Under the pieces are notes generated by a model. That model saw only the letters and a list, made by a program, of their open reading frames with translations, was not told the origin of the DNA and searched no databases. A stretch of DNA of 64,000 nt. Source: a virus. The stretch lies in the IMG/VR virus record IMGVR_UViG_3300008267_000007, positions 47,095 to 111,094 of that record; one strand, 5' to 3'. Position numbers and translations under genes: made by a program. Shown here piece by piece: positions 12,882 through 47,603 of this stretch. Within the stretch, counting starts at the first letter, position 1. Every line of letters starts with the position of its first letter.

Positions 12882-12911
12882 AATAAGTTTTAATATTAAA
12901 TATTTATAAAC

Positions 12912-28198: not shown

Positions 28199-28228
28199 TT
28201 TGGCTCCTATAGGGAGCCTTATTATATT
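28199..28228 (+). promoter_or_regulatory. Palindromic promoter TTTGGCTCC-N5-GGAGCC-TTAT-TATATT, copy 1
   Basis: TTTG-N20-TATATT; upstream of primase operon. Confidence 0.75.
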
Positions 28229-29352: not shown

Positions 29353-30111
29353 ATGAGTTACGAAAGAATCCTAAAAATTTCAGACGATCACCAACAAATT
29401 ACTTTACCAGATTCTAGATTTTATCAAAGAAATGGTGAGTATTACCCATCAATTACCCATGTTTTATCTTCATATCCTAAAGGTAAACATTTTGAAGACT
29501 GGTTAAAGAAAGTAGGATACTCATCTGAATACATTGTTAAAAAAGCAGCAGAAGAAGGTACTCAAACACACCAACTGTGTGAGGATTATTTAAATGGTAA
29601 AGAATGTACTTTTTTAGATCCATATTATAAGCCTAAATACATACCTGAGGTATGGAAAATGTTTATAAAATTCGTTGAATTTTGGGAAACACATAAACCT
29701 AAACTGATAGAAACTGAAGTACATTTATTTTCTGATGAAATTAAAGTAGCAGGTACTTGTGATTTAGTAGTTGAAATTGAAGATGAATTATGGGTTATAG
29801 ACTTAAAAACTTCAAACCACTTACAAACTACTTATGATTTACAAACGGCTATCTATAGCAAATGTTATGAAGAGGATTTTGGAAAAAAAGTAAATAGAAG
29901 AGGAGTATTATGGTTAAAATCAGCTAAACGTGGTATTGATAAATCAGGTAAGAAAATGCAAGGTAAAGGTTGGGAAATAGTTGAATCAGATAGAACTCAA
30001 GATGAAGATTTAGAAATTTTTAGGTGTGTTAAAACCCTATTTGATTTAGAAAATCCAAATCCTAAACCTCATATTGAAGAATTAAAAACTGTAATCAAAA
30101 GAGAAGTATAA
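29353..30111 (+). CDS. PD-(D/E)XK exonuclease
   Basis: PSIT.VL, GT..H, AGT.D, IDLKTS, Q...Y. Confidence 0.88.
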   Translation: MSYERILKISDDHQQITLPDSRFYQRNGEYYPSITHVLSSYPKGKHFEDWLKKVGYSSEYIVKKAAEEGTQTHQLCEDYLNGKECTFLDPYYKPKYIPEVWKMFIKFVEFWETHKPKLIETEVHLFSDEIKVAGTCDLVVEIEDELWVIDLKTSNHLQTTYDLQTAIYSKCYEEDFGKKVNRRGVLWLKSAKRGIDKSGKKMQGKGWEIVESDRTQDEDLEIFRCVKTLFDLENPNPKPHIEELKTVIKREV

Positions 30112-30141
30112 ATATTTATATTAATAACATAACTATACAAT

Positions 30142-31140
30142 ATGATTATTTCTGAAAGAAAACAATTAGGTACGGTATACCACTTTACTAAAATAACTTC
30201 TATAAAATCCATATTAGAATCTAATTCATTTAAGGGGTCTGAAGTAGGAACCTGGAATTTTGAAAGAGATTTCCAATTTTTTAAAAAAGATGAGAAATTT
30301 TTTATCGATAAAGGTATAACCCACTTATATTTTTTCTCTACTACACGTAATAAGTTATTTTACAAAAGACCTTCTCATGGTGTTGGTGGAATGACTGCTC
30401 GTATTGTATTAGATGGGGACAAAATATCCGATAAATATAGATTTGTCCCTTTTAGATATTATGATGATGAACCTAAACATGAAGGTTCAGATGAATCCGA
30501 AGAAAGAATTATATTAGGTCTTAAAAGAGAATTACCTAACGCTAAAAGTTATATTAAAGAGATCCATGTAATGTTGGATTTAATAGAAGATAATGAAGCG
30601 TATTTACAGGAAGCTGAGAAATTGTATAATTATGATCCTTCATTAATTAAGTTTTATTATAAAGAAAAAGAAACTACTTTAGAAGATTATAGAACTAATA
30701 TCTTACCTACTATAGAACCTTATAGAGAAGACGAAATGGATGAAAATGATTCATTTGAGTATAGAGGAGGACCAATATTGCATGAGGGATTTACATCTCA
30801 AAAAGCACCACTAATGGGTAAATTTGTTGATTATACTTGTAGTAGATTAAATATAGATAAACCCAAAATTTCTATTATAAATTCACCTTTATACTCTCAA
30901 AAACATAAAAGTTTTGGAGGATACATGCCATCAGAACAATCAATAAAAGTAGTAGTGCATAATAGAAACATGGCTGATATTTTAAGAACATTAGCTCATG
31001 AGTTAGTACACCATATGCAAAACCTAACTGGAAAAGAATTAAATGGGGAAGATGGGTCAGACATTGAAAATGAAGCTAATGCAATGGCCGGAGTAATAAT
31101 GAGAGAATTTGGACGTGAAAACCCAGAAATATTTGAATAA
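30142..31140 (+). CDS. ADP-ribosyltransferase-like domain fused to a zincin metallopeptidase
   Basis: YHFT...STTR...ESEER (ART-like, tentative); LAHELVH...ENEAN (clear HExxH). Confidence 0.65.
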   Translation: MIISERKQLGTVYHFTKITSIKSILESNSFKGSEVGTWNFERDFQFFKKDEKFFIDKGITHLYFFSTTRNKLFYKRPSHGVGGMTARIVLDGDKISDKYRFVPFRYYDDEPKHEGSDESEERIILGLKRELPNAKSYIKEIHVMLDLIEDNEAYLQEAEKLYNYDPSLIKFYYKEKETTLEDYRTNILPTIEPYREDEMDENDSFEYRGGPILHEGFTSQKAPLMGKFVDYTCSRLNIDKPKISIINSPLYSQKHKSFGGYMPSEQSIKVVVHNRNMADILRTLAHELVHHMQNLTGKELNGEDGSDIENEANAMAGVIMREFGRENPEIFE

Positions 31141-31142
31141 TA

Positions 31143-31313
31143 ATGGATGGTAGATTTAGAGAGGCTCTTTATATGCTAAGAATATTAATGGCAGTAGAAA
31201 ATGAATTTGATATTATAATACAAGACACTGAAGTAGAATTTATAAATACTTTTGAAGATCTAATAAACTTAATACAAGAAAAAGAAAATGATATCAATAA
31301 AGGAATTATTTAA
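31143..31313 (+). CDS. 56-aa truncated acyl-carrier-protein-like protein lacking the Ppant serine, not in ORF track
   Basis: EALYMLRILMAVENEFDIIIQDTEVEFINTFEDLINLI aligns with ACP helices II-IV. Confidence 0.65.
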   Translation: MDGRFREALYMLRILMAVENEFDIIIQDTEVEFINTFEDLINLIQEKENDINKGII

Positions 31314-31824
31314 AGAAGAGTTATCTAAAGCTTACACTATCTATTGTGATATGGATGGTGTACTTTGTGATTTCGAAGCTCGCTTTGAACATTTCACAGG
31401 TTTATCCCCAGATCAATATCGAGCAAAAACTCAAAAAGAATATGGTGATAAAAAAGCAGATGAAATGTTTTGGGATGTAATTGATCACCAAGTAGGAATG
31501 AGATTTTGGAGAGGGATGCATTGGATGCCTGAAGGTAGAGCTTTGTGGGATTATATAAAACCTCATAAACCTACTCTACTCACAGCACCTTCATGGCATG
31601 ACTCTAGTAAAGAAGGGAAAAAAGCCTGGGTTGAAGATCACATACCTGGAACTCCTATAGTTTTTAAACCCGCAGACAAAAAAGCAGATTTATCCGGTCC
31701 TAATACAATTCTTATTGACGATAGAGAAGACACTATTATGAGTTGGAAAGCTAAAAATGGTATAGGAATTTTATATAAAAATACCGAACAAACAATAAAT
31801 GAATTAAAACACTTAGGACTATAA
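31288..31824 (+). CDS. HAD-family 5'(3')-deoxyribonucleotidase-like protein
   Basis: IYCDMDGVL.DF, LTAP, K..W, LIDDR. Confidence 0.88.
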   Translation: MISIKELFKEELSKAYTIYCDMDGVLCDFEARFEHFTGLSPDQYRAKTQKEYGDKKADEMFWDVIDHQVGMRFWRGMHWMPEGRALWDYIKPHKPTLLTAPSWHDSSKEGKKAWVEDHIPGTPIVFKPADKKADLSGPNTILIDDREDTIMSWKAKNGIGILYKNTEQTINELKHLGL

Positions 31825-31827
31825 GTT

Positions 31828-32400
31828 ATGTCAACACAATTAAATAGAGAATTCTCAGAACGCGACATACAACGTATGCGTAATATTATTAGTAAAAAAA
31901 CTGGTGATGGTACTCGAATTCAAGCTGGTTATGCCAAAGCACAAATTACTCATATTGAAGGAGATGTTTGGGAAGAAAATGGTAAGACTTGGACTCTTAA
32001 AAACGGTATCAAGCAAACTGTCACTAAACATGATGCCTTAAAAGCTATGGTGGAATTTCCACTTACATGCCCATGTTGTAGTAAGCCAATGAAAGATCAA
32101 CCATTGAATAGAAAAATGTATTCTATACACAACAAGTGTTTTGATTGTGTTATTGAAATGGAAACTAAACTTCGATTAGAGGGTAAATATGATGAATATG
32201 TTAAGGGGATGTTAAACAGTAATAAAAATTCCTCTTTAAATGATGTCGAACAAATGTTTGATGAGTATTTCAACAGTAAGAAAGAAACATATGTTACTGA
32301 GGCAGGTGATATAGAAAAATGGGATGGTGGTAGCATTGACCCTGAATACATAAAAATGGTCAAAGAAAATATAAAACGCCTTAAAGAAACAGAGATATAA
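31828..32400 (+). CDS. Hypothetical protein with CxxC...CxxC Zn motif
   Basis: CPCC and CFDC; GDVWEE.GK.W. Confidence 0.8.
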   Translation: MSTQLNREFSERDIQRMRNIISKKTGDGTRIQAGYAKAQITHIEGDVWEENGKTWTLKNGIKQTVTKHDALKAMVEFPLTCPCCSKPMKDQPLNRKMYSIHNKCFDCVIEMETKLRLEGKYDEYVKGMLNSNKNSSLNDVEQMFDEYFNSKKETYVTEAGDIEKWDGGSIDPEYIKMVKENIKRLKETEI

Positions 32401-32422
32401 ATATTTATACCAAAACCTAACC

Positions 32423-33055
32423 ATGAAAAAAGAATTCTTAAAGAACATAATTAAAGAAAGCATAACTGATTATCTATCAGCTTTAAATGAAACTAATGCA
32501 GATCCTAGCGTACCTGAAGATTCAACCGATATGGCTTTGGATATGATGAAGAATGGATTACCTACCCAAACTAAAGAATCATTAACATCTACTCCCGGTA
32601 TGATGTTTGAAGATAAAGTAACTAAAGATAGTCATATCTATTTAGTTAAAAAAGCAATGAATGAGTCTACTGAAAAAGATTTAGTTGAGAAAAAATTATT
32701 ATTAGATCTAATTGGTGAAGGATTATATGAAGGTGCTTATTTAAATGAAGCTGCTGCTATGAATGCTGCTAAAAAAGCTCTTAAAGGTAGAGACACACAG
32801 ATTAAAGAAAATGTTAAAAGAGGTAATTCTAAGATATCTGAATTAGAGGATCAAATTGAAGACTTGAAAATTGACATTAAAGCTAAACAAAGTAAAGCTA
32901 TAGACGAACCTGGAATGAGAGATAGTTTAGTAGCTGATGTTGAGGGTTTAATGGCTAAATTAGATAAAAAAGAAGCAGTATTAGAAAAATTAAAAGCTGC
33001 TTTAGAAAAATCTGCACCTAAAAAAGAAAAGAAAGAAACTAAAGATGAAGAATAA
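32423..33055 (+). CDS. Putative internal head protein
   Basis: Late promoter; leader LKNIIKES...LNE; charged coiled coil. Confidence 0.65.
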   Translation: MKKEFLKNIIKESITDYLSALNETNADPSVPEDSTDMALDMMKNGLPTQTKESLTSTPGMMFEDKVTKDSHIYLVKKAMNESTEKDLVEKKLLLDLIGEGLYEGAYLNEAAAMNAAKKALKGRDTQIKENVKRGNSKISELEDQIEDLKIDIKAKQSKAIDEPGMRDSLVADVEGLMAKLDKKEAVLEKLKAALEKSAPKKEKKETKDEE

Positions 33056-34592
33056 TTATACTGAAATTTTATCTAAACATCTATATACTCTAATTAAAGA
33101 GGAACTTGAAGATGGTGAAGATGATCAAGCTAAGAAATATGCTGAGTATGATGTAGTATTAATTCCGGAAGATGTTAGTAAGGCTATTGAAGCCCTATCT
33201 AATGTTAAGAATTATGGACCTTATGCTCAAAATCTAAGAGATCCTAAAACCATTGAACAAGTATTTGGACCAACTACTCCTGCAACTAAAGGTAGAGTAG
33301 CTAAAGAAACATGGAATAAATTTTCAGAAGGTGAAAAACGTGCTAAGGTACTAGATATTAAGTCTAGAGCTCCTCAAGATTTTGCTTCTGTTGAAACACA
33401 ATTAAATCCTAACTTCCAAACTTGGTCTGAAGAGAATGAAGGGGATTTTATTGATTTCTTAATATCACTTCCTGGAGAATCCTTACCAATGAGTTTTTAT
33501 GGTAAGTATGGTGCTAATTTCTTTCTAACTAAAACGCCTGAAAATCTTAAAAAATATAGTGGTGTAATGTCTAAAGGTGTTCACTACACAGCGGATGAAA
33601 ATGAATTAACCTTTCCTAATAATTGGAATCCATTTAAATCTAAAGATTATCTTAAAAAAGTATTAAAACTTATAATGGATGCTGCTGGAGTAGAATATGT
33701 TTTTTCTGAACAAGAATCAGCAGAACAACCTAAAGAAAAAGCAACTAGTATTACTTCACCTGAAAAACCAGGTCAAATAAATTTCGTTAAAACATTCACT
33801 GATGATGAAGGCGAACCAGATAATGATCTAGCTTTAAAATTCAGAAAATTAGTACCAGATGAATTCAAATTTAAAACCAAAGTTGAAAACGGTAAGATTA
33901 CAGTAAGTGATATATCAGCATCTGAAAAGAAAGCTTTGATTAATGCCTCAATTAAATTCCAAGAAAAATATAGTAACCTTTACGAAAATACCAACACAAT
34001 GAAAGACCAATTAAGAACACAGTTAACTTCTATGATTAAAGAAGTTCTTTTAGAAAAAAAATTAACTCCTGCTCAACTTAAGAAAAGAAATAAAGAGGCA
34101 GAAGTTATTAAAAAGAAAAACCCTAAAATCGATAAAGGTGAAGCATATGCAATTGCTACTAAACATTTGAAAGAAGATAAAGGTGATACTTCATTAGATG
34201 ATATTGTAATGTCGTTTGAAGCTGCTCTTGATATTGAGGATGAAGCTAGACAAAAACAAGCTTTAGCTGCGGTTTATAATGAATTAAAAAATAAAGTAAA
34301 AGGTAAAATTAATAAAGCTGTTGATTGGGCTAAAGAAAAAGCACAGGCCTATGATGATAGTTTAGGAGAAGGTCTAAATGAACCTACCCAATTAGCTGCT
34401 ACTCAACAAAATAAAGCTAAATCTAATATAACTAATATTAAAACTTTTTCTCAAGCCGTTAAAGATTTGATAACTCAACTACAAGCAGGAGAAGAAGCAG
34501 ATTATGTAAACACCCCAACTTTTAAATCAGTTATGCAATATTTAGATAAAGCCATAGGGGCTAAAGACACCCCAAAAGCACCCACAAAATAA
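33045..34592 (+). CDS. Putative internal head polyprotein
   Basis: Leader LYTLIKEE; internal second leader MKDQLRTQLTSMIKEVLLE. Confidence 0.65.
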   Translation: MKNNYTEILSKHLYTLIKEELEDGEDDQAKKYAEYDVVLIPEDVSKAIEALSNVKNYGPYAQNLRDPKTIEQVFGPTTPATKGRVAKETWNKFSEGEKRAKVLDIKSRAPQDFASVETQLNPNFQTWSEENEGDFIDFLISLPGESLPMSFYGKYGANFFLTKTPENLKKYSGVMSKGVHYTADENELTFPNNWNPFKSKDYLKKVLKLIMDAAGVEYVFSEQESAEQPKEKATSITSPEKPGQINFVKTFTDDEGEPDNDLALKFRKLVPDEFKFKTKVENGKITVSDISASEKKALINASIKFQEKYSNLYENTNTMKDQLRTQLTSMIKEVLLEKKLTPAQLKKRNKEAEVIKKKNPKIDKGEAYAIATKHLKEDKGDTSLDDIVMSFEAALDIEDEARQKQALAAVYNELKNKVKGKINKAVDWAKEKAQAYDDSLGEGLNEPTQLAATQQNKAKSNITNIKTFSQAVKDLITQLQAGEEADYVNTPTFKSVMQYLDKAIGAKDTPKAPTK

Positions 34593-35149
34593 TGATTAAA
34601 TTAGCTGATATACTAAAAGAGATAGAGGAACCTGTAAATTTTTCAGCATTAGCAAATATAGATGATGTTGTAAAAAAGGAACTAGAAAAAGCACAAGAAG
34701 ACCAACCTGTAAATGAAGTAGTTGGTTTAACAGTAGCTGCATTTATTATAGCTTTACCAGGAATGATTAATGGTATATTTAGAATTATAAAAGCTATAAA
34801 AGATAAAGCTCCTCCAAGATTTAATCTATCTAAATCAGATGATAATCAATCTCATATTGATTATATAATTGATTTTACTAATAAAATGGATGAGTATCTT
34901 GACACTCCTTTTAGATTGATGTTAACCCCTTTTATAAAAGACGAAACAAAAAGAGATAAAGTAGCAAAACTTATAAAAGCTCTAACATTATTAATAATGT
35001 CATTGGGAATAGATATAACAAAATCCCCAAATATAATGGCCGTAGGTAAAGAATTAGCGGGTGATAAATTTACAGATTTAGCTTTTAGTAAAACAACAGC
35101 TGATTTAATAATTAAAGTAAAACCTATAATACAAAATATCTTCAAATAA
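34592..35149 (+). CDS. Putative internal head protein with hydrophobic segments
   Basis: Leader MIKLADILKE; hydrophobic helix after VNE. Confidence 0.65.
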   Translation: MIKLADILKEIEEPVNFSALANIDDVVKKELEKAQEDQPVNEVVGLTVAAFIIALPGMINGIFRIIKAIKDKAPPRFNLSKSDDNQSHIDYIIDFTNKMDEYLDTPFRLMLTPFIKDETKRDKVAKLIKALTLLIMSLGIDITKSPNIMAVGKELAGDKFTDLAFSKTTADLIIKVKPIIQNIFK

Positions 35150-35977
35150 ATGGATCAATCAGATTTAAGAAATATAATTAGAGAAACCATAGAACATATC
35201 TTTCAAGAAAGTAAAGTATCTTCTCTTCAAGAAAATGTTTTATTAACTGAAGATAAAGTCTCTAAAAACCTACAATACCATTTAGATAAAAACATCCCAT
35301 TACATGAGAATGCTTTTAGATATGGTACTGAAGCTCAATTATCTTTATTCAAAGAAGTAAGAAAACTTTATAATGAAGATAAACTGTATTTAAATCCTGA
35401 AGATAGGTGGTTAGTTGAAAACACTGATATTGGGAATTATGGTTTATTTGAAGGTCAATTTGTAGCTTTAGATGTACCAATGATTGAAGAGGATGTTAAT
35501 CCTACTGATACAATTACAATGGATGTTCCATTATTTATTCGCATGCTAGAATATGCTAGAGAGGATGCTAAGACCGATATGGACTTACATGATGTGGCAG
35601 AAAAAGCGCTTGCTTTGAGTACTACTGGCGCTACATTAACTATGGCGAATTATGAGAGTATTGCGGGTAAATCGTTGAATGAAGCTGAATATCAAGGTAA
35701 AGAAGTTAAATTAAGTAAACCAAAACGTGGTGGGTCTAAAAAATTCTATGTTTATGTTAAGGACGGAGACAAAGTAAAAAAAGTTTCATTTGGAGCAGCA
35801 GGTGGTGGTCAAAATTTAGCAGTTAAGATTAGAGATCCTAAAGCAAGAAGAGCATTCGCTGCTCGCCAAAATTGTGATAGAAAAAAAGATAAAACAACTC
35901 CTGGATATTGGTCTTGTAATATAGGTCGTTATTGGAAATCATTAGGTGGAGGTTCAAACTTTAGCGGATACTGGTAG
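35150..35977 (+). CDS. Putative internal head polyprotein with basic C-terminal domain (DUF6321-like)
   Basis: Leader LRNIIRE; KKFYVYVK...V.FG...AR..F.AR..C...YWSC. Confidence 0.7.
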   Translation: MDQSDLRNIIRETIEHIFQESKVSSLQENVLLTEDKVSKNLQYHLDKNIPLHENAFRYGTEAQLSLFKEVRKLYNEDKLYLNPEDRWLVENTDIGNYGLFEGQFVALDVPMIEEDVNPTDTITMDVPLFIRMLEYAREDAKTDMDLHDVAEKALALSTTGATLTMANYESIAGKSLNEAEYQGKEVKLSKPKRGGSKKFYVYVKDGDKVKKVSFGAAGGGQNLAVKIRDPKARRAFAARQNCDRKKDKTTPGYWSCNIGRYWKSLGGGSNFSGYW

Positions 35978-36360
35978 TGGATGATTTAAACGAAAAAAAG
36001 AAAAAACGTGATAGATGTTTACGTATAGCTGATCGAAAATATAATAAACCATCAGCTTATAAATCAGCTGCTGCTGAAAGATGTCGTCAGGGTGATATAT
36101 GGAAAGATTTAAAAGAAGCCTTTAAACAAGTTCTTCAAGAAGATGAATCACTTTATAAATGGCTTAAAAGACAAGGCCCACCAGGTAAAGAAGGAGGATG
36201 GGTAGATTGTAATACTTGTCGTAAAGTAGACGGTAAAACAAAATGTAAAGCATGTGGTAGGAAAAAAGGAGAAAAACGTGCAAAATATCCTTCATGCCGT
36301 CCTACACCTAAAAAATGTAAAGATCCTGGAAAGGGTAAAACTTGGGGAAAAACAAAATGA
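35977..36360 (+). CDS. Basic Cys-rich protein
   Basis: PSAY.S, W.D, CGR, YP.CRP motifs; GTG start. Confidence 0.75.
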   Translation: MDDLNEKKKKRDRCLRIADRKYNKPSAYKSAAAERCRQGDIWKDLKEAFKQVLQEDESLYKWLKRQGPPGKEGGWVDCNTCRKVDGKTKCKACGRKKGEKRAKYPSCRPTPKKCKDPGKGKTWGKTK

Positions 36361-36602
36361 TAAAACTACAAGACATATTAACAGAAAATTATGGTGGACC
36401 AGGTGAAATGGTTTTACCTCCAAACCATAAAGCAGGATTAAAAGTACCTAAAGGTGGTTCATGTTGTGCTAATTGTAAATGGTGGAAACAAGAAGAAAAA
36501 ATTTGTGTTAGTACTTATTATGTTGAGTGGGCGGGTACAAATACTATACCATATGCCGCTGATGAATATTGCACAAATTGGTGGGAACCTATAACTAAAT
36601 AA
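36357..36602 (+). CDS. Small Cys-rich protein with MIKL leader
   Basis: Start 36357 (ATGA overlap), MIKLQDILTE; C.NC.WW...C...C.WW. Confidence 0.75.
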   Translation: MIKLQDILTENYGGPGEMVLPPNHKAGLKVPKGGSCCANCKWWKQEEKICVSTYYVEWAGTNTIPYAADEYCTNWWEPITK

Positions 36603-36606
36603 TATC

Positions 36607-36951
36607 ATGATAAAATTAAACAACTTACTAAACGAAGCTACCCTCGACAAAATATTCCACATTAATGGAACTCTTATTGTTGATGATAATGCTAGAAACC
36701 AAAAAGACATCCTTTCAGATGTTCGAGCTTTACCTGGCATTACAGTGGTAAGAAACGTGGAGATGGATCAAGATCCTACCTCAAGATACTTTAGAAGTAG
36801 ATTAGAAGTAAAAATCGATCCCTATCCATACACAAAACAACATAAGTTCAATGGGGAAGAAACTATTCAAACCATTGCGGATAACATAAAAAAGGTACCT
36901 GGTGTAATAGGATTTAAACAAGATGGTGTTACTTATGTTACTGAAGTATAA
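36607..36951 (+). CDS. Hypothetical protein with MIKL leader (ferredoxin-like alpha/beta repeat)
   Basis: MIKLNNLLNE; two R/K.(L/V)PG(I/V) units. Confidence 0.75.
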   Translation: MIKLNNLLNEATLDKIFHINGTLIVDDNARNQKDILSDVRALPGITVVRNVEMDQDPTSRYFRSRLEVKIDPYPYTKQHKFNGEETIQTIADNIKKVPGVIGFKQDGVTYVTEV

Positions 36952-37218
36952 ATGAAACCCTATCAAGAAGTTATAGATAGAGACAATTCACGTTTACGTG
37001 AATTTAAAACTAATATAGATACTCATGAGTTAGTATGGCATAAAGATCAAAAAGATCGTCATATTACTATATTAGAAGGAGGAGGGTGGCAATTTCAAAT
37101 GGATAATGAATTGCCTTTAATTCTTCAAAAAGGAGATAATATATTTATACCTAAAGAGACCTACCATAGAGTAATAAAGGGTTCTTCTGATTTATTAATT
37201 AGCATAATAGAAACATAA
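36952..37218 (+). CDS. Cupin-domain protein
   Basis: WH.D...R...G.GW.FQ...GD..FIPK..YHR. Confidence 0.8.
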   Translation: MKPYQEVIDRDNSRLREFKTNIDTHELVWHKDQKDRHITILEGGGWQFQMDNELPLILQKGDNIFIPKETYHRVIKGSSDLLISIIET

Positions 37219-37953
37219 ATGAGTATTAAACAATACAAATTAAAAGATTTACCTGATAAAGTAAGGAACCCCCATACAAGTATTAGATTTAAAGGAGATA
37301 AAACAACCTATTCTAGCATATTTGTAACTTCTAGTAATAAGTCTGTTAGAGTGAAAAATGAACAAACTGGTGAAACCAGAACTTTCCCTATTAAAGATAT
37401 AATTAGAATAGGTAATGATGATATTCAAATTGTTAATGAGAGTTTAGAACTCCTTAAGCAAATTATCAAAGAGGAAATTGAGGATTTCAAATCTTCTGAA
37501 CCTCTTACATTTGAAGGTAACCCATTAGAATTTATCTTACAAAAATATGATACATTAGACGCTACAATGATTGATCTAATGACACCATCATTTAGAGATT
37601 ACATAACTGGGATATTCATTATAGCACCTAAACCAACCACTTTTAGAGTATTGCTTCATAATAACCAAGAATTCCATTTAATATACGGTCCTCAGGCTTA
37701 CATTGCTAGAATATCAGGTAAAAAATATAACTTAATTAATTTGTCTGAAGAGGAATTTGCTATCAAATCTATAGCCCAATTATTAGAGTTAGGTATGCCT
37801 CCAGGAAGTGAAGGTCCAGCTGAAGAGAATAAAAATGAAGCGGACTTACAAAGCAATTCCCAAGAAGAGACCCAAGCCGAAACACCACCTGAAGAAGAAA
37901 CACCTCCAGCTGATTTAAAAGAATCAATTAAAAAATTTAGAATAAAATTATAA
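37219..37953 (+). CDS. Hypothetical protein with internal leader-like motif
   Basis: VNESLELLKQIIKEEIE; acidic Pro-rich tail. Confidence 0.7.
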   Translation: MSIKQYKLKDLPDKVRNPHTSIRFKGDKTTYSSIFVTSSNKSVRVKNEQTGETRTFPIKDIIRIGNDDIQIVNESLELLKQIIKEEIEDFKSSEPLTFEGNPLEFILQKYDTLDATMIDLMTPSFRDYITGIFIIAPKPTTFRVLLHNNQEFHLIYGPQAYIARISGKKYNLINLSEEEFAIKSIAQLLELGMPPGSEGPAEENKNEADLQSNSQEETQAETPPEEETPPADLKESIKKFRIKL

Positions 37954-37958
37954 ATAAA

Positions 37959-37988
37959 TTTGGCTCCCCAAAGGAGCCTTATTATATT
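37959..37988 (+). promoter_or_regulatory. Palindromic promoter, copy 2
   Basis: TTTGGCTCC-CCAAA-GGAGCC-TTAT-TATATT. Confidence 0.75.
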
Positions 37989-38010
37989 ATACTAATTTAA
38001 CAAATCTGTT

Positions 38011-38796
38011 ATGAACAAAATTAATAAAAAGAGATTATTTTTTGACATCGAAACCAGCCCAAACATTGGATTTTTCTGGCAATCGGGATATAAATTAAAT
38101 ATACCATATGGTAATATTATTAAAGAGAGAGCCATTATTTGTATTTGTTATAAATGGGAAGGTGACGATAAGGTATATTCTTTAAATTGGGATAAAAACC
38201 AAGATGATAAAGAATTATTAGAAAAATTTATTACTGTAGCTAATGATGCCCATGAATTAGTAGGTCACAATGGGGATAAATTTGATTTGCCTTGGATTAG
38301 AACACGTTGTCTATTCCATGGTATTCCTTGTTTCCCTAATTACACTACAATTGATACTTTAAAACAAGCTCGTTCTAAATTTAGATTCAATAGTAATACT
38401 TTGAATTACATTGCCCAATATTTAAATGTTGGTGAAAAATCTGAAACTGGTGGATTTGATTTGTGGAAAGATATTGTATTAAACAATAGTCAAACTGCAA
38501 TGAAAACCATGGTAGATTATTGTAAAAATGATGTAGTAATTCTAGAGAAAGTATTCCACCATCTTAAAAATTATGTTCCTCATAAATCTCATTTTGGAGT
38601 ATTAGCAACAGGTGAAAAAACATCTTGTCCCGAATGTGGATCAGAAGATTTAAAACATTCTCAAACTCGTTATTCAGCCGCTGGAACTCCACGTGTTCAA
38701 ATGCAGTGTAGAGATTGTCACAAATACCACACAGTAGCTAATAGAACTTATGAAGCCATAACAGCCCAACAATTACAAGAGGGGGTAAAAAAGTAA
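38011..38796 (+). CDS. DnaQ/RNase H-like 3'-5' exonuclease with C-terminal Zn ribbon
   Basis: FDIET, HNGDKFD, IDTLK, YC.NDV; CPECG...CRDC. Confidence 0.88.
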   Translation: MNKINKKRLFFDIETSPNIGFFWQSGYKLNIPYGNIIKERAIICICYKWEGDDKVYSLNWDKNQDDKELLEKFITVANDAHELVGHNGDKFDLPWIRTRCLFHGIPCFPNYTTIDTLKQARSKFRFNSNTLNYIAQYLNVGEKSETGGFDLWKDIVLNNSQTAMKTMVDYCKNDVVILEKVFHHLKNYVPHKSHFGVLATGEKTSCPECGSEDLKHSQTRYSAAGTPRVQMQCRDCHKYHTVANRTYEAITAQQLQEGVKK

Positions 38797-38817
38797 TATT
38801 TATTTGTAAACCATACT

Positions 38818-39042
38818 ATGAAATTAAACGAATACCTAAAAGAAATACAAGAAGTCCAAATAAAAGTTGGAGATAGTTTTGCTTTAAGAGGAGATATTGG
38901 TATATTCAAAAAGGGAGAAACAGTGGAAGTTATTGATAAAAAATCTTATGGTAATGATATTGAATTAACATTGTCTAACAACAAAGGTAAAGAAGATAAG
39001 TTTTATTTAGATAAAAACGATGACTTTGAAGAACTAGGATAA
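38818..39042 (+). CDS. Small late protein with leader
   Basis: MKLNEYLKEIQE; SH3-like beta pattern. Confidence 0.7.
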   Translation: MKLNEYLKEIQEVQIKVGDSFALRGDIGIFKKGETVEVIDKKSYGNDIELTLSNNKGKEDKFYLDKNDDFEELG

Positions 39043-39497
39043 TGAAAAGATCAGAATTAAAAGAGATTATTAGAGAAGAGTTCAAAAGGATTCTTAGAGA
39101 ACAAGACCCTGAACAAGACCCTGAACTTAGTATTGGAGACAGAATAGAACCTGAACCCGAGGCTGAACCTTCACCTGAACCCGATAAACCAGAAACTGAA
39201 ATCCCCGAAGAACAACCACTTCAAAATATTTCTAAGTTAGATGCAGCTCAAAAGATAAGGGATACTAAAGGAAGAATGTTTACAGTTACTTTTATTAAAA
39301 AGTCAAATGGTCAAAAGAGGGTAATGAATGCCCGTTTAGGAGTTAAAGCATATCTAAGAGGAGGAGTATTACCTTACGATCCTAATACAAAAGGATTAAT
39401 TCCTTGCTATGATGTGCAGAAAAAAGATTACACAATGATTAACATCCCAGGTATTGTTAATTTAAAAGTTGGGGGAGTAGAATATAATGTAATATAA
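39042..39497 (+). CDS. Leader, PE-rich linker and SH3/WYL-like beta-barrel domain
   Basis: MKRSELKEIIREE; FTVTFIKK.NG..R.M.AR.GV...YD..K..Y. Confidence 0.72.
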   Translation: MKRSELKEIIREEFKRILREQDPEQDPELSIGDRIEPEPEAEPSPEPDKPETEIPEEQPLQNISKLDAAQKIRDTKGRMFTVTFIKKSNGQKRVMNARLGVKAYLRGGVLPYDPNTKGLIPCYDVQKKDYTMINIPGIVNLKVGGVEYNVI

Positions 39498-39518
39498 AAT
39501 AATAAACTAATTAATAAG

Positions 39519-39548
39519 TTTGGCTCCGTAAAGGAGCCTTCTTACATT
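39519..39548 (+). promoter_or_regulatory. Palindromic promoter, copy 3
   Basis: TTTGGCTCC-GTAAA-GGAGCC-TTCT-TACATT. Confidence 0.72.
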
Positions 39549-39568
39549 TAACCATAAAATTTAAACAT

Positions 39569-40867
39569 ATGAATAAACAAATTGTAATTGTAGGAGCTGG
39601 AGTAGCTGGTATAAATGCCGCTACTAAACTAGTAGATAACAATTTTAAGGGTAAAATAACAATTATCGATATGGGGAAAGACCCCCATAAACGATTGCCA
39701 AGTGAAGTAATGACTGGCATGTTAGGTGCTGGTGGTTGGTCTGATGGTAAATTAACGTACCACACAGCTATTGGTGGTCAATTATCAAAGTACTGCGGTG
39801 AAGAAAAAGCCATGGAGTTAATGGATCAAGTTATTACTAACTTTAAACGTTTCCACCCTAAACCTGAAGAAGTACAATGCTCAAATCCAGTTGCTGAACC
39901 TGATTTTATTAAACCACAATTTGGTTTACGTTTATTTCCTGTATGGCATGTTGGAACTGATTATTTATTAGAAATTGCTAAAAATTGGTACCAATATTTA
40001 GTTGATAATGGAGTTGAATTTGTATGGGAAACTAAAGTAACTGATATATTATTTAATATTAATGCAATTCATCTACAAGGAGGAAGTATTATAAAATATG
40101 ATGAACTTATATTTGGTGTAGGTAAATCAGGTATTGACTTTGGTAAAATATTAGCTGAAAAGTACGACTTACCAACTGAACCTAAATCAGTACAAATAGG
40201 TGTTCGCTTTGAAGCACCACAAAAACACTTCCAAAAATTGATTGATGTATCATATGACTTTAAATTATATAGAAAATTTGAAGACAAAGGAGTATCATTA
40301 CGTTCATTCTGTACTAACAATAATGCGGCGTATGTTGCAGTAGAAGAAACATACGGAAACTTTTCATATAATGGTCATGCTAAAAAAGATGAGAAGTATA
40401 GAAATGATATGACTAACTTTGGTATCATAATGGAGTTAAATGGAATTGAAGATCCATTTACTTGGAGTAGAGATTTAGTTAAACAATTGCAAATTGGTGG
40501 TAAGGGATTATATTACTCCCCATCACGCAAACCATCATTTACTTCAGAAGGAAATCATGTAGAAACAACTCAAATCGATAATGCTGCAATGCATGAAGTA
40601 AGAGAAGCATTTGAGGGGTATTTTAACTACATTGATAGCTTTATTGAAGGGATGAAAGAAGTATTTCCTACATTAAAAGACGATTGGGGTATGTACATAC
40701 CTGAAGTAAAATATCTATCTCCAGAACCACTTGTTGATTATACTAACTTAGCTTTGACTAAATATCCAAACGTGCATTTCGTTGGTGATGCTCTTTCTGC
40801 TAGAGGTATAACAGTAAGTGGAGCACAAGGGATTTATGTTGCCGAAGATATTTTGAGATACGAATAA
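39569..40867 (+). CDS. FAD-dependent oxidoreductase
   Basis: IVGAGVAG, G.LGAG.WSDGKL, GVRFE, RSFC.N, VGDA...RGI. Confidence 0.9.
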   Translation: MNKQIVIVGAGVAGINAATKLVDNNFKGKITIIDMGKDPHKRLPSEVMTGMLGAGGWSDGKLTYHTAIGGQLSKYCGEEKAMELMDQVITNFKRFHPKPEEVQCSNPVAEPDFIKPQFGLRLFPVWHVGTDYLLEIAKNWYQYLVDNGVEFVWETKVTDILFNINAIHLQGGSIIKYDELIFGVGKSGIDFGKILAEKYDLPTEPKSVQIGVRFEAPQKHFQKLIDVSYDFKLYRKFEDKGVSLRSFCTNNNAAYVAVEETYGNFSYNGHAKKDEKYRNDMTNFGIIMELNGIEDPFTWSRDLVKQLQIGGKGLYYSPSRKPSFTSEGNHVETTQIDNAAMHEVREAFEGYFNYIDSFIEGMKEVFPTLKDDWGMYIPEVKYLSPEPLVDYTNLALTKYPNVHFVGDALSARGITVSGAQGIYVAEDILRYE

Positions 40868-40886
40868 TTTTTATTATATTAAACAC

Positions 40887-41141
40887 ATGGAAGAACAAGA
40901 ACAAAAACAAGATTACAAATCAAGAACACTTACTACTGAAGACGGTAGAACAATTATATATTTTGACGGAAAACTCCATTCATGGGATGAACCGGCTCTT
41001 AAATACAAAAAAGAATTAAAAAAGAAAGATGAATATTATTTGTATGGTTTTCAATACACTAAAGAAGAATGGTTGGAAGCACGTAGAGACAGACACGGAG
41101 TACCACCAGAGAAAAACCCACAAGTAACATCAAGATTTTAA
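40887..41141 (+). CDS. Hypothetical protein
   Basis: GKLH.WD.PA...EYYLYG motif; TTTG-N19-TATATT upstream. Confidence 0.78.
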   Translation: MEEQEQKQDYKSRTLTTEDGRTIIYFDGKLHSWDEPALKYKKELKKKDEYYLYGFQYTKEEWLEARRDRHGVPPEKNPQVTSRF

Positions 41142-41149
41142 TAAATAAA

Positions 41150-41179
41150 TTTGGCTCCCATAGGGAGCCTTATTATATT
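41150..41179 (+). promoter_or_regulatory. Palindromic promoter, copy 4
   Basis: TTTGGCTCC-CATAG-GGAGCC-TTAT-TATATT. Confidence 0.75.
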
Positions 41180-41206
41180 GTATAAATAAAACTAATAAAA
41201 TAAGTT

Positions 41207-41737
41207 ATGAGAATAGGATTAACCGGTACCGTGTCTGTAGGCAAAACAACATTAGTTAATGCTTTAAAAGAATTACCACAATTTAAAGATTATCATTTTG
41301 CTACTGAACGTAGTAAATATTTAAGAGATTTAGGTATTCCATTAAACACTGATTCTACATTAAAGGGTCAAACTGTGTTTTTAGCTGAACGATGTGCAGA
41401 ATTGATTAATGAAAATTTAATTACTGATAGAACAGTTATTGATGTAATGGCATTTACTCAAAATGCTGAATCCATTGGTCTTACAGATAAAGAAAAATTT
41501 AGAAAGTATGCTTCTGATTTTATCAAAGAATATGATTATATTTTTTACATCTCTCCTGAAGGAGTAGAAATTGAAGATAATGGGGTGCGCACTATTGATG
41601 CTGAATATAGAGAACTAATTGATTCAACTATTAGACATTTTATCAATACATACAATGGCAAACTACAAAACTGCAAACAAATATCAGGCACTACAGAACA
41701 ACGCATCAAACAAATACTAGAAGTTATTTCTCTATAA
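41207..41737 (+). CDS. P-loop nucleoside/nucleotide kinase (NadR/AAA_28-like)
   Basis: GTVSVGKTT, DRT.ID, EDNGVR. Confidence 0.85.
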   Translation: MRIGLTGTVSVGKTTLVNALKELPQFKDYHFATERSKYLRDLGIPLNTDSTLKGQTVFLAERCAELINENLITDRTVIDVMAFTQNAESIGLTDKEKFRKYASDFIKEYDYIFYISPEGVEIEDNGVRTIDAEYRELIDSTIRHFINTYNGKLQNCKQISGTTEQRIKQILEVISL

Positions 41738-41773
41738 TATTTATATCAAAACCATAACTTAAAAAATAAAAAA

Positions 41774-42421
41774 ATGAACATTAATAATGATTTTGATTTA
41801 AAGAAAGCAAAGAATTTCCTTTTAACTGAAAATTTTGACGCTTCTTACTTACAAGAAGAAGATTTAGATGAGAACGAAGAAGTTTCTCTAGAAGAAATGG
41901 CTAAACTAACTAGTGCAGGAGGTGAATATACTCCACTAGGACAAAAAGTAGCAGCTATTATTAAAGCACAACCTGAATTAGAAAAATCAGCATTGTTGAA
42001 AGTTCTTAATACCGATCCTGAAATTGCTAAAATGTTAGATGATAGCGAAGAAGAATTACATCAAAATCAAACAAATAAATTTGCTGCTTTAGTTCGTGGT
42101 TCAAGAGAATTAGGACAAAGAGGTAGAAAAGCAGATCCAAACAAACCTGCTGCTGAACCAAAAGAGCCAAGAGTTGCTAAAGCCCCGGGAGAAAAGAGAA
42201 TTAAAATCACTACTCCTAAATCTGAACCAACAACAGACGAAACACCAATCGATAATACAATTGGATTAGGTCAAGATGAGATGATTAAAGAAAAACGTAA
42301 ACTTGAAGCTGAAAGAATGGAAGCAGCTAAGGCTTATAAAGCTGGTGATGAGTCAGTTTTACCTAAGATGAAAGAATTAACTGCTCAAATTAACAAATTG
42401 AATAAAAAATTAGGAGTATAA
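41774..42421 (+). CDS. Putative internal head protein
   Basis: Late promoter; FDLKKAKNFLLTE leader; acidic then basic (QRGRK). Confidence 0.65.
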   Translation: MNINNDFDLKKAKNFLLTENFDASYLQEEDLDENEEVSLEEMAKLTSAGGEYTPLGQKVAAIIKAQPELEKSALLKVLNTDPEIAKMLDDSEEELHQNQTNKFAALVRGSRELGQRGRKADPNKPAAEPKEPRVAKAPGEKRIKITTPKSEPTTDETPIDNTIGLGQDEMIKEKRKLEAERMEAAKAYKAGDESVLPKMKELTAQINKLNKKLGV

Positions 42422-46045: not shown

Positions 46046-46900
46046 ATGGCTAATATTAAGCATAATAAATATCGTAATACTGGTATCCTATTTGAACTTC
46101 TTGTAAGAAAAATTACAGCTGATACTATGTCTAACCAAGACTCCAAAGCTGTATCTTTAATTAAGAAATACTTTGTTAATACTGAATTATCAAAAGAAAA
46201 CAAATTATATCAATCTATATCAAGAGTTCAAAATATTAGTGAGGCCAAAGCTGAATCTATTATTTCTACTATATTAGAAATAAATAAATCTTTAAATCAA
46301 GTTAAATTATCTAAAGAAAAGTTTAATTTGATAAAAGAGATTAAGGCTAATTTTGACATAGATGATTTTTTTAAAGCGAAAATTAGTAACTACAAGTTAT
46401 TATCTTCAACTTATACTTTATTAGAGGCAAATTTGTTTCCTTCACACCATGTGGATACTATAATTAATTCTAAGATGAACATCTTAGAACATATAGCTCA
46501 GTCACAACTTGTAAAAGAAATACAACCTACAGTTAGTGAATTTGAGTTATTAGACAAAGGAACTCGCGCATTAGTTTATAAATTGATGTTGGAAAAATTC
46601 AATACCAAATTTGAAGTATTATCTGATGATCAAAAAGATGTGTTAAAAGAATACATTAATAACATCTCTAATACTACTAATCTTAAAAAGTATGTAGATG
46701 TTAAGTTTACATCGTTAAAGGAATCTCTTTTAAAATTATTACCTAAAATAGAGGATGCTACTATTAAAATTAAAGTAAATGAGACCATAAATCTTATTAA
46801 CCCTATTCTAGAATCTAAAACATTAAAAGACGATAATATTATTGCTCTATTACAATATCAGGAACTGCATAGTGAGTTAAAAAAGATTCATAATGGATAA
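46046..46900 (+). CDS. Hypothetical head-module protein
   Basis: After portal with own late promoter. Confidence 0.75.
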   Translation: MANIKHNKYRNTGILFELLVRKITADTMSNQDSKAVSLIKKYFVNTELSKENKLYQSISRVQNISEAKAESIISTILEINKSLNQVKLSKEKFNLIKEIKANFDIDDFFKAKISNYKLLSSTYTLLEANLFPSHHVDTIINSKMNILEHIAQSQLVKEIQPTVSEFELLDKGTRALVYKLMLEKFNTKFEVLSDDQKDVLKEYINNISNTTNLKKYVDVKFTSLKESLLKLLPKIEDATIKIKVNETINLINPILESKTLKDDNIIALLQYQELHSELKKIHNG

Positions 46901-47603
46901 AGATAAATTAAGAGAATTAGTAAAACAGTGTATAGAAGAAATGTCTGCCACTGCGGGTGCTGGGGGGTTTATGGGCAGAGTAATGCTTAAAAAACCCAAA
47001 TATGAAAGCACCACTAAAGCTTTTACTCGTAATCCTGCTCGTCCGGTAACTGATCAAGATAAAAACTCACCTGCTGGATTTGAAACCATGCCTGATTCTG
47101 CTAAAACTTATATTAAAGGAGGATTTAGAGCAATTAAACCCAAAGAGAGAATTGATGCCAAAGATTTATGGAAGGGCCAACATTTAGAAGAAAAAATTGC
47201 TGTCCTAACTCCCAAAGCATTCAGAAAATCTAAAAAACAACATGAGACTTCTAAATCAGGACATGAAGATTTACCTAATCTCGATAAATATTTTGAACTA
47301 GTGAAATTTAAAATAGTTGACTCAAAAAAAGAAGAAGAACAACTTAATGAGGTTCGTTATTCTCAATTTAAAAATGAGACTAAAAACAGAAAACCCCAAG
47401 AGCAATTGCATATGGGTGTTAAAGAAATCCAACGTAAGTTAGAGGAGATTAATAAATTAGTTGATTTTACTTCTCGTATGAAAACTGAATTAAAAGGTGA
47501 TGAGGATCAAATGAACTATTTAAAACGTACTCATAATGCGTTGTTTAGAATAAATGAAAAAATCCAAGAAATTAATAATAAAATTAAAGGTTTAACTGAA
47601 TAA
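46893..47603 (+). CDS. Putative prohead core/internal protein
   Basis: Leader LRELVKQCIEE; multiple L-x-E sites. Confidence 0.65.
   Translation: MDKDKLRELVKQCIEEMSATAGAGGFMGRVMLKKPKYESTTKAFTRNPARPVTDQDKNSPAGFETMPDSAKTYIKGGFRAIKPKERIDAKDLWKGQHLEEKIAVLTPKAFRKSKKQHETSKSGHEDLPNLDKYFELVKFKIVDSKKEEEQLNEVRYSQFKNETKNRKPQEQLHMGVKEIQRKLEEINKLVDFTSRMKTELKGDEDQMNYLKRTHNALFRINEKIQEINNKIKGLTE

Follow-up and report, generated by a model that had tools for sequence, protein, structure and literature searches.

Why do unrelated phage proteins begin with the same short peptide? The question is raised by a 64,000-nucleotide stretch of viral DNA (the window), which is bases 47095-111094 of one 111,094-bp contig of ~30% G+C (IMG/VR record IMGVR_UViG_3300008267_000007), and in particular by positions 30142-42421 of it (the span). 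A preliminary description of this DNA proposed that late proteins of the span share an amphipathic leader that ends at a prohead-protease site, and that the leader is a portable tag for loading proteins into the phage head. We find that the leader pattern is real and far beyond chance, and that each computable prediction of the capsid-targeting reading was borne out. We consider it likely, with a probability of roughly three in four, that the leaders are capsid-targeting sequences (CTSs) of the kind found in phage T4, with processing by a prohead protease, on a much expanded set of proteins. Positions are those of the window unless they are marked as genome positions, which refer to the whole contig.

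Unrelated proteins share an N-terminal leader

The leaders are 9-19 residues long, and all of those listed here close with [ILF]-x-E. Scores in the list are from a position-specific scoring matrix (PSSM) that is described below it.

31288-31824, + strand: NT5C/HAD 5'-deoxyribonucleotidase; leader MISIKELFKE (31288-31317); Pfam NT5C over residues 18-166
32423-33055, + strand: tagged protein of 210 residues, acidic and coiled-coil-like; leader MKKEFLKNIIKE; PSSM 10.6
33045-34592, + strand: tagged protein of 515 residues; longer leader, with LYTLIKE ending at residue 19
34592-35149, + strand: tagged all-helical bundle of 185 residues; leader MIKLADILKE; PSSM 21.6
35150-35977, + strand: tagged protein of 275 residues; leader MDQSDLRNIIRE; PSSM 14.2; C-terminal basic domain phrog_7595, from residue 176
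35977-36360, + strand: basic Cys-rich protein with an isoelectric point (pI) of 10.0 and 8 Cys; GTG start; six-residue leader remnant (M)DDLNE
36357-36602, + strand: tagged Cys-rich protein of 81 residues; leader MIKLQDILTE; PSSM 23.1, the highest in the proteome
36607-36951, + strand: tagged protein of 114 residues with a ferredoxin/ACT-like fold; leader MIKLNNLLNE
37219-37953, + strand: protein of 244 residues with an internal leader-like LELLKQIIKE (residues 76-85; 37444-37473); PSSM 13.9
38818-39042, + strand: tagged protein of 74 residues; leader MKLNEYLKE
39042-39497, + strand: tagged protein of 151 residues; leader MKRSELKEIIRE, acidic Pro-rich linker, phrog_2267 domain (residues 68-149); PSSM 15.3
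41774-42421, + strand: tagged, largely low-complexity protein, directly upstream of the large terminase (TerL) gene; leader MNINNDFDLKKAKNFLLTE, 19 residues

All of the N-termini named in the preliminary description are in place. The strong members are 31288, 32423, 34592, 35150, 36357, 36607, 38818, and 39042. The leaders of 33045 and 41774 (..FDLKKAKNFLLTE) have 19 residues, like that of T4 IPI. MDDLNE at 35977 appears to be a decayed leader, which makes this gene a weak member; relatives of its body (..KKDRCxRIADRKY..) bear full leaders, such as MIRLTDILLESLLE and MINLKDILVEALLE. LELLKQIIKE of 37219 is the best internal PSSM match, and the same motif is N-terminal in relatives of that body. 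At 30142 (30142-31140), the leader is lost: relatives start with MIKLKDILLEAKQVGNLYHFT, and the phage's own copy with MIISERKQLGTVYHFT. This protein has 332 residues, a C-terminal HExxH (LAHELVHH), and weak matches to DUF3920 and DUF6055, and relatives with the same YHFT-type start have an MIKLxDILxE leader directly before ..QVGxLYHFT.

As had been claimed, the motif also occurs outside the span. It is present at 12912 (MNLDAFRKVIRE), at 46893 (MDKDKLRELVKQCIEE), in the prohead protease (MSKSLLIE), and in the major capsid protein (MCP), but the 12912 leader is weak, with a low PSSM score (its probable counterpart in Flavobacterium phage immuto, MKLDLLKKLIKE, is judged by the N-terminus alone), and LLE-10 of the MCP is probably not a maturation site.

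We summarized the leader as hydrophobic-x-x-hydrophobic-[LIF]-x-E, that is, the regular expression [LIFMYV]..[LIFMYV][LIF].E with the motif ending at residue 8-13. This matches 12 of the 173 open reading frames (ORFs) of the whole 111,094-bp genome, where the internal rate predicts 2.36 (Poisson, 7e-6). Shuffling the whole protein, or the first 13 residues only, gives a mean of 2.0-2.3 matches, with 8 as the highest value. Eight of the 12 matches fall within 14 consecutive ORFs at 31143-39497 (hypergeometric, 8e-8). We also built a 10-column PSSM from 54 distinct leaders, taken from relatives only, and scanned it over ~33,600 positions of the phage's own proteome. A profile scan of the proteome had been proposed as a check. 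In ours, the best seven positions are all N-termini, and so are eight of the best 12.

To represent the relatives, we used 80 IMG/VR loci anchored on the large terminase, with 1058 ORFs. Motif ends in these ORFs peak at residues 10, 12, and 13 (25, 30, and 36 proteins, versus ~2 expected for each), and the Glu of the leader is invariant in three family alignments.

The leader is an addition to the body of each protein

As had been claimed, the domains downstream of the leaders are unrelated. The bodies in the span include NT5C, Cys-rich proteins, a helical bundle, and a ferredoxin/ACT-like fold, and Pfam and PHROG searches gave no family for most of the tagged proteins. Where a family profile exists, the leader lies outside it: in 39042 the match to phrog_2267 begins at residue 68, in 35150 that to phrog_7595 at residue 176, and in 31288 that to the NT5C profile (phrog_2643, E = 1.4e-25) at residue 13. 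Since residue 13 corresponds to profile position 4, the 31288 protein has ~9-10 extra N-terminal residues. Its orthologue in immuto has an N-terminal extension too, and this closes with LLE.

AlphaFold2 (AF2) models of two tagged families show the same arrangement. Residues 1-10 form a short helix of low confidence, which is followed by a variable linker and a confident body (predicted local distance difference test, pLDDT, of 85 overall and 52 for residues 1-10 in 34592; 81 and 52 in 36607). The 34592 protein had been called hydrophobic; its model is instead a soluble-looking all-helical bundle, for which a PDB fold search gave no match at E <= 0.001. For 36607, the fold search gave only generic ferredoxin/ACT-like matches, without a function. 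Pfam, PHROG, and ESM Atlas searches gave no relative for 33045, and for 35150 the ESM Atlas gave only unnamed viral clusters, with DUF5872 at 0.84 as a weak lead.

Family alignments show which residues are kept. Among orthologues of 34592, which start with either MIKLADILKE or xxEFKRMQFLAGIIKEN, M1, L4, and E10 are invariant. Among 27 homologues of 36607, M1, L7, and E10 are invariant, and there is an indel just after the leader. All four members of the 36357 family are tagged. Among 12 positional homologues of 41774, E19 of the leader is the sole invariant column and F7 is nearly invariant. Given its location, we considered whether 41774 might encode the small terminase, but it does not look like TerS: the homologues are divergent and of low complexity, only the leader is kept, and there is no Pfam or PHROG match. 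The 41774 protein and the protein at genome position 33178 have a C-terminal motif in common, AGD-SVLP-(K/Q)-x-K-x-L.

Leaders move between proteins in related phages

The portable nature of the tag, which the preliminary description had proposed, is borne out in relatives. When the bodies were clustered without their first 20 residues, a tagged member was present in 34 distinct families from the 80 loci (19 of them singletons). There are four recurring leader types: MIKLxDILxE, MK[KR]SELKxIIxE, MxDNFxLKKFLxEN/GKL, and xNEIKRMQQLAGIIxE. Orthologous bodies swap leader types, in the families of both 34592 and 35150; for example, MIKLLKLLSE replaces MDQSDLRNIIRE in one relative of 35150. Arrays of tagged genes lie upstream of the terminase in relatives. 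One locus (L068) has six or seven, and another (L074) has seven, with the leaders MIKLTNILRE, MIKLIDILTE, MIKLTELILE, MIKLIDLLKE, MIKLKQVLTE, MIKLVELFNE, and MIKPIDILRE.

A degenerate DNA pattern for MIKLxDILxE matched at least 120 IMG/VR contigs. Among the matches listed, all 99 (from 80 loci) open an ORF of at least 40 residues, and in 93 the leader starts at the first ATG after the upstream stop; 60 of the 80 loci have other genes in common with the source phage. Outside the leader, the 97 listed MIKLxDILxE proteins have a mean column identity of 7%. Pfam domains on the tagged proteins listed include DUF5872, Zeta_toxin/AAA_33, DUF5824, DUF6934, LRR, RimK ATP-grasp, Phage_lysozyme2, Peptidase_M23, Hydrolase_2, NUDIX, RNase_T, and NT5C. 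The isolate immuto (host Flavobacterium sp. LMO8) has 15 matches to the regular expression, versus ~3 expected, and one of them is on its NT5C protein; every leader type is represented in this isolate. One tagged protein of immuto (NC_055915, our locus L091, 25632-26633), which starts with MADNFNLRSFLTENKL, is annotated as 'cob(I)alamin adenosyltransferase'; this looks like a mis-annotation from a low-complexity match.

The leader seems to be under selection at the protein level, because its conserved residues use several synonymous codons: L4 is encoded by TTA (11 times), CTA (9), CTT (2), and CTG (1), L8 by TTA, CTA, and CTT, and I2 by ATT, ATA, and ATC.

The phage has a T4-like head module

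By its genes, the source phage is a distant, uncultured relative of T4 from water. Almost all genes of the 111-kb genome are on the + strand. BLAST identifies homologues of T4 gp17, gp20, gp21, gp23, gp25, gp43, gp44, and gp62. In tblastn, the MCP shows 59% identity to its counterpart in Flavobacterium phage vB_FspM_immuto, 50% to the one in Microcystis phage Mel-JY01, and 35% to the one in Rhodothermus phage RM378. No match to the span was found by megablast among 50,697 phage records, and the MCP of the nearest isolate is only the 59% identical one. In the head module, the terminase gene is followed by those for the portal, three or four small proteins, the protease, an acidic protein, and the MCP, an order that mirrors T4 genes 17-20-(67, 68)-21-22-23.

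46893-47603, + strand: head-module protein between portal and protease; N-terminus MDKDKLRELVKQCIEE, then MSATAGAGG
48979-49596, + strand: gp21-type prohead protease; N-terminus MSKSLLIE; phrog_207 'head maturation protease', E = 1.5e-55; 35% identity to T4 gp21
50766-52412, + strand: gp23-type MCP; tblastn to T4-like MCPs and BLAST to T4 gp23

The capsid-targeting reading predicts a protease of the gp21 type, and the gene at 48979 is a clear match for one. Its start, MSKSLLIE, is the counterpart of the T4 gp21 start, MNEPQLLIE, and T4 gp21 itself carries this site (LIE-9; PMC9026906). The propeptide of the MCP probably reaches VVE-61 (50766-50948), which is followed by SSSTGTGG. We had considered LLE-10 (MINSLLE) as the maturation site, but a shared ..VQPM anchor puts the T4-equivalent cut near VVE-61. 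The 46893 gene occupies the position of T4 gp67/gp68. A Ser/Thr/Gly-rich stretch after the predicted cleavage Glu is common to the 46893 protein (IEE-MSATAGAGGF) and the MCP (VVE-SSSTGTGGTF; 50766-50990), and relatives have ..E-MSTTGTGASFAAGSGEQ, which is close to the MCP's TGTGGTFTAGTGEQ.

There were two side observations. In Microcystis phage Mel-JY01 (L222), a gene annotated as 'RpsU ribosomal protein S21' (22183-22410) sits inside the head module, with the protease gene on one side and the gene in the scaffold position on the other. At genome positions 12614-14547, outside the window, are adjacent ORFs of 97 and 545 residues whose N-termini resemble GroES and GroEL (by eye, from the sequence).

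The leaders also resemble the T4 CTSs position by position. Propeptides of the T4 internal proteins (IPs) have 10-19 residues, and in IPIII residues 4 and 7 are involved in targeting and residues 8 and 10 in processing (PMC9026906). IPIII begins with MKTYQEFIAE, and so has Y4 and F7, and IPI begins with MKTFKEFTSTTTPVSTITE. Among the 10-residue leaders, position 4 is L in 23 of 25 and position 7 is I or L in 24 of 25, with L at position 8 and E at position 10, so the likeness to T4 that had been suggested extends to the length of the IPIII leader and to its four mapped positions. When run on the 265 ORFs of T4, the regular expression gives 11 matches. Because these include IPII, IPIII, gp24 (MAKINELLRE), and Alt, the expression does find true gp21 substrates. 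One T4 protein, gp61.1 (NC_000866; loci L082-L090, 18966-19130, - strand), is a 54-residue 'hypothetical protein' that starts with MKTFKEFIKE, with a gp21-type I-K-E at residue 10; this is very close to the start of IPI (MKTFKEF..), and gp61.1 may be an unrecognized small internal protein.

The putative scaffold ends in the leader core

Cores of the leaders (MIKLADIL, KRMQQLAGII) recur as the extreme C-terminal tail of the putative scaffold.

49776-50729, + strand: putative scaffold, between protease and MCP; pI 4.1, 29% Asp+Glu, 21 [IL]xE sites
50673-50681, + strand: I-V-E 302 site near the scaffold C-terminus, followed at 50682-50726 by the tail NNDFMLRMQKLAGII (..PIVE-NNDFMLRMQKLAGII)

The scaffold protein ends with ..KPIVENNDFMLRMQKLAGII. 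In the 1058 ORFs of the relatives, [KR][LM][QK]xLAG[IL] occurs only near N-termini (in the first ~24 residues), where it marks leaders of the fourth type, or in the last ~16 residues of scaffold-position proteins. We also scanned an 8-column PSSM, built from the relatives' MIKL-type leaders, over 33,286 positions. MQKLAGII, which is residues 310-317 of the 317-residue scaffold, ranks sixth overall and is the top match among all non-N-terminal positions. MIKLADIL and MQKLAGII have M, K, L, A, and I in common, with I or L at the eighth position, and the third leader type (NNNFNLKQFLAEG) can be aligned with NNDFMLRMQKLAG. All relatives examined have a tail of this kind; of 20 distinct tails, 18 are preceded by an [ILV]-x-E site, which lies 13-17 residues from the C-terminus. 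It is also present in immuto (..SRWQKLAGIIK) and Mel-JY01 (..ERMKKLAGIVK).

By the confinement of the motif, its PSSM rank, and its conservation, the cargo tag and the scaffold tail are the same peptide, and in both a protease-type site lies between the peptide and the remainder of the protein.

The scaffold-position protein of immuto (L091, 33627-34868), which is acidic and has the ..RWQKLAGIIK end, is annotated as 'DNA polymerase phi-like protein'; this also looks like a low-complexity mis-annotation. The N-terminus of T4 gp22 (MLKEQLIAEA; L087:9117-9926, gene 22) resembles the CTS of IPIII (MKTYQEFIAEA), with [LF]-I-A-E-A in common, and ..AIAEAK is also found near the N-terminus of the source phage's scaffold.

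Tagged genes share a promoter-type motif with structural genes

The tagged genes had been said to follow late promoters. The motif AATATTTAT occurs 14 times on the + strand, 13-105 nt before start codons, and four of these copies are inside the span. All 14 lie within the 7% of the genome that is non-coding; another three copies are on the other strand. The genes behind these copies include, in the span, 30142, 32423, 38818, and 41774 and, elsewhere, those of the portal and the scaffold together with 46046, 47765, 53228, 56519, and 62129. Judging from the genes downstream, AATATTTAT is probably a late promoter, in agreement with the claim. The T4 late promoter (TATAAATA) was rejected as a candidate: it has no coding-strand enrichment (9 forward versus 22 reverse), and AATATTTAT is the motif of the source phage.

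30111-30119, + strand: AATATTTAT motif, heads the operon 30142-32400
32400-32408, + strand: AATATTTAT motif, heads the main tagged operon 32423-37953
37962-37978, + strand: hairpin terminator GGCTCC..GGAGCC with TTATTATATT, ahead of the untagged exonuclease gene 38011-38796 (Pfam RNase_H_2, PolB exonuclease)
38795-38803, + strand: AATATTTAT motif, heads the operon 38818-39497
39522-39538, + strand: hairpin unit GGCTCC..GGAGCC, ahead of the untagged FAD/NAD oxidoreductase gene 39569-40867
41153-41169, + strand: hairpin unit GGCTCC..GGAGCC, ahead of the untagged AAA_28 NTPase gene 41207-41737
41736-41744, + strand: AATATTTAT motif, heads 41774 and the large terminase gene

The majority of tagged genes lack their own promoter and follow the preceding gene stop-to-start. 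In the span, 10-11 of the 16 genes in AATATTTAT operons are tagged, versus none of the other four (38011, 39569, 40887, and 41207), which lie behind hairpin terminators that are followed by TTATTATATT or a variant of it. As the capsid-targeting reading would have it, tagged operons have AATATTTAT in common with portal, scaffold, head, and tail genes, and the untagged enzymes lie behind a different terminator-promoter unit.

The hairpin unit has the consensus TTTGGCTCC-N5-GGAGCCTT(A/C)TTA(T/C)ATT. The window holds four copies of it (28202-28218, 37962-37978, 39522-39538, and 41153-41169). It is a terminator hairpin followed by a degenerate form of TTCGTATATT, an early-type motif, and each copy heads an untagged run (genes here include primase-like, exonuclease, oxidoreductase, and AAA_28). 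TTCGTATATT itself has 38 copies, which head small-gene cassettes of the other half of the genome.

A proposed model for cargo loading

We propose that the leader, as an amphipathic peptide of 9-19 residues, copies the tail of the scaffold (..RMQKLAGII). Late in infection, it would bind the partner of the scaffold tail in the assembling prohead, which may be the inner face of the shell or the core, and the attached protein would thereby be co-assembled into the prohead. The gp21-type protease would then cut after the Glu of the leader, and would also remove the tail from the scaffold at the conserved I-V-E. The folded mature cargo, which has few internal sites, would stay in the head with the DNA and would be ejected with it into the next host. 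Among such cargo here would be the NT5C nucleotidase, small domains, and basic Cys-rich proteins, and relatives would add kinases, cell-wall hydrolases, NUDIX proteins, and ATP-grasp proteins. The cell-wall hydrolase domains on relatives' tagged proteins would fit a role at entry.

We infer leader binding, cleavage, retention in the head, and injection from sequence comparisons, and the parts of this model are not equally probable. That the cargo consists of injected effector proteins seems to us an even bet. The more specific idea, that the leader mimics a C-terminal shell-binding peptide of the scaffold, so that this aquatic T4-related lineage would have an encapsulin-like code for cargo loading, is tentative, and we would put its chances somewhat below even.

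Several observations weigh against the capsid-targeting reading. The leaders were expected in late genes, and the tagged operons share AATATTTAT with structural genes, but three tagged genes lie behind early-type TTCGTATATT promoters. Two of these have strong leaders (genome 32061 and 33178, where the element is the hybrid TTCGTATATTTATTTAT) and one has a weak leader (genome 45374, with the canonical early-type motif). The regular expression and the leader classes were defined post hoc, from the same data; for this reason, we added the PSSM test, which is partly independent. The scaffold has no BLASTP similarity to T4 gp22 and no PHROG match, so its label comes only from gene position and composition. 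Whereas IPII and IPIII of T4 are basic, the mature cargo is in most cases acidic or close to neutral, and we know of no precedent for a nucleotidase that is packed into the head. A literature search gave no proteomic, cleavage, or packaging data for the source phage or its relatives.

Alternative explanations

The tag might direct proteins into the prohead as proposed, yet the tagged proteins might be accessory core or scaffold proteins that are degraded and expelled at maturation, like T4 gp22, gp67, and gp68, rather than injected effectors. Several of them are acidic, coiled-coil-like, or of low complexity, and rich in [IL]xE sites (4.0 per 100 residues in 32423 and 2.0 in 41774; the scaffold has 6.6). 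Also, 46893 is at the gp67/gp68 position, and the scaffold itself has the tag. On the other hand, many of the bodies are compact domains or enzymes with few internal sites (0.6 per 100 residues in 31288 and 34592) or none (36357 and 36607), and in relatives the tag is found on domains of the lysozyme, M23, kinase, NUDIX, and exonuclease kinds, which are sensible as delivered activities and not as disposable scaffold. We consider this explanation improbable.

Alternatively, the leader and the tail might be where the prohead protease, or some other shared partner, docks or exerts regulation, with cleavage that times the activation or inactivation of late enzymes in the cytoplasm and no packaging. 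The only strictly invariant feature of the leader is the Glu of the protease-type site, and enzymes do carry the tag as an N-terminal extension. However, prohead proteases of the T4 type are active only inside assembled proheads (PMC9026906, PMC5694885). Furthermore, the hydrophobic positions 4 and 7, which in T4 govern targeting and not processing, are as conserved as the cleavage site, and the presence of the peptide in the scaffold tail points to assembly. We give this explanation only a small chance.

A very unlikely explanation is that the pattern is not a protein signal at all but reflects AT-rich codons, selection on the 5' end of the mRNA for translation initiation, or a recombining cassette of promoter plus leader DNA. 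K, I, L, N, and E are common in a genome of 30% G+C, and promoter and leader DNA is indeed common to one pair of cassettes: these twins, at genome 32004-33612, which are outside the window (13.5-15.1 kb before its start), have 103 of 127 nt in common through the leader and diverge into unrelated payloads past it. But composition-preserving shuffles give ~2 matches versus the 12 observed, the synonymous codons at conserved residues vary, most tagged genes are translationally packed without their own promoter, and the peptide also occurs at a C-terminus. It is just as unlikely that the leader sends proteins to some other place (out of the cell, into a membrane, or to a compartment made by the phage): the leader is N-terminal, short, and amphipathic, but it contains acidic residues, has no hydrophobic core, lipobox, or twin-arginine motif, and recurs at the C-terminus of a head-module protein.

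Implications

The CTS of T4 has been known since 1996 and has been used as a tool for protein delivery. The sequence evidence points to the same tagging logic, on a much larger scale, in a widespread aquatic T4-related lineage (at least 120 IMG/VR contigs) that extends to two isolates, immuto (a Flavobacterium phage) and Mel-JY01 (a Microcystis phage). Because the tag matches the scaffold tail, the binding partner of the CTS becomes a directly testable question. The leader also offers a simple sequence rule by which proteins that are internal to the head or injected could be predicted in metagenomic phages, where most genes of this sort are 'hypothetical', and provides a catalogue of candidate first-strike effectors.

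If the leader does mimic the scaffold tail, then any protein with ~10 residues of the right kind (MIKLxDILxE) would take the place of that tail during loading, and the prohead protease would release it afterward. A first-strike toolkit of dozens of exchangeable binders and enzymes, including cell-wall hydrolases, zeta-toxin-like kinases, nucleotidases, NUDIX proteins, and LRR proteins, would enter along with the DNA, and the binding partner of the T4 CTS would be named.

Comparison with known systems

The closest known system is that of T4, whose internal proteins IPI, IPII, IPIII, and Alt carry CTSs that gp21 removes, as was reportedly described by Mullaney and Black in 1996. Both kinds of leader are N-terminal, have 10-19 residues in T4 and a similar length here, end in I/L-x-Glu, and have hydrophobic residues at positions 4 and 7. 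In both phages, the bodies are unrelated and include an enzyme (Alt in T4), the tagged genes are in a variable region, and the gene for a gp21-family protease is beside a gp22-position scaffold gene and a gp23-type MCP gene. Unlike the T4 CTS, the leaders are known from sequence alone, and no homology to it was detected beyond the pattern. The source phage has at least four leader types, versus essentially one in T4, and ~11-14 tagged genes in 111 kb, versus four known T4 substrates that the regular expression finds (IPII, IPIII, gp24, and Alt; the 19-residue propeptide of IPI is outside its range). Its cargo is mostly not basic, in contrast to IPII and IPIII. Finally, the match between leader and scaffold tail is not seen in T4, where gp22 ends with ..VYAKVASRF. 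The CTS has been proposed to let T4-like phages load varied proteins (PMC9026906; also reviewed, with the IPs, in PMC3012670 and PMC5694885).

In phage P1, an N-terminal signal of <30 residues in DarB, an anti-restriction protein that is injected, likewise suffices to load a foreign protein into the head (PMC9024508). No consensus and no gp21-type cleavage motif are described for the P1 Dar proteins (PMC9024508), whereas the source phage has a sharp consensus and a protease site. Many head-internal proteins of phiKZ, 201phi2-1, and SPN3US are also cut after Glu by a gp21-related protease, and paralogues among them share conserved N-termini (PMC5694885, PMC9026906). However, the propeptides of these giant phages mostly have >100 residues and end in S/A/G-x-E (PMC5694885), while the leaders in the source phage have 9-19 residues and I/L/F at P3. 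Signals of the Sec, Tat, and lipoprotein types do not match the leaders, which lack the hydrophobic core of ~10 or more residues, the lipobox, or the twin arginine of such signals and contain acidic residues. Our literature search turned up no description of CTS-like tags in distant T4-related phages, flavobacterial ones included.

The scaffolding protein of P22 has a coat-binding peptide at its C-terminus, and encapsulins have cargo-loading peptides; in both, a short terminal peptide binds the inside of an HK97-fold shell. Unrelated cargo can be carried in this way, and here one peptide occurs as both cargo tag and scaffold tail. The P22 and encapsulin peptides differ in being C-terminal on the cargo and in not being removed by a protease, and shell binding by the source phage's tail is a conjecture.

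Because its logic is that of the T4 CTS and gp21, we do not consider this to be a new kind of system. None of the following features was described in any paper found in our literature search. What appears to be new is that the tag system occurs in an abundant aquatic lineage that is distant and uncultured, that the tagged proteins are so many and so varied, that several leader types are interchangeable, and that the leader is identical with the tail of the scaffold.

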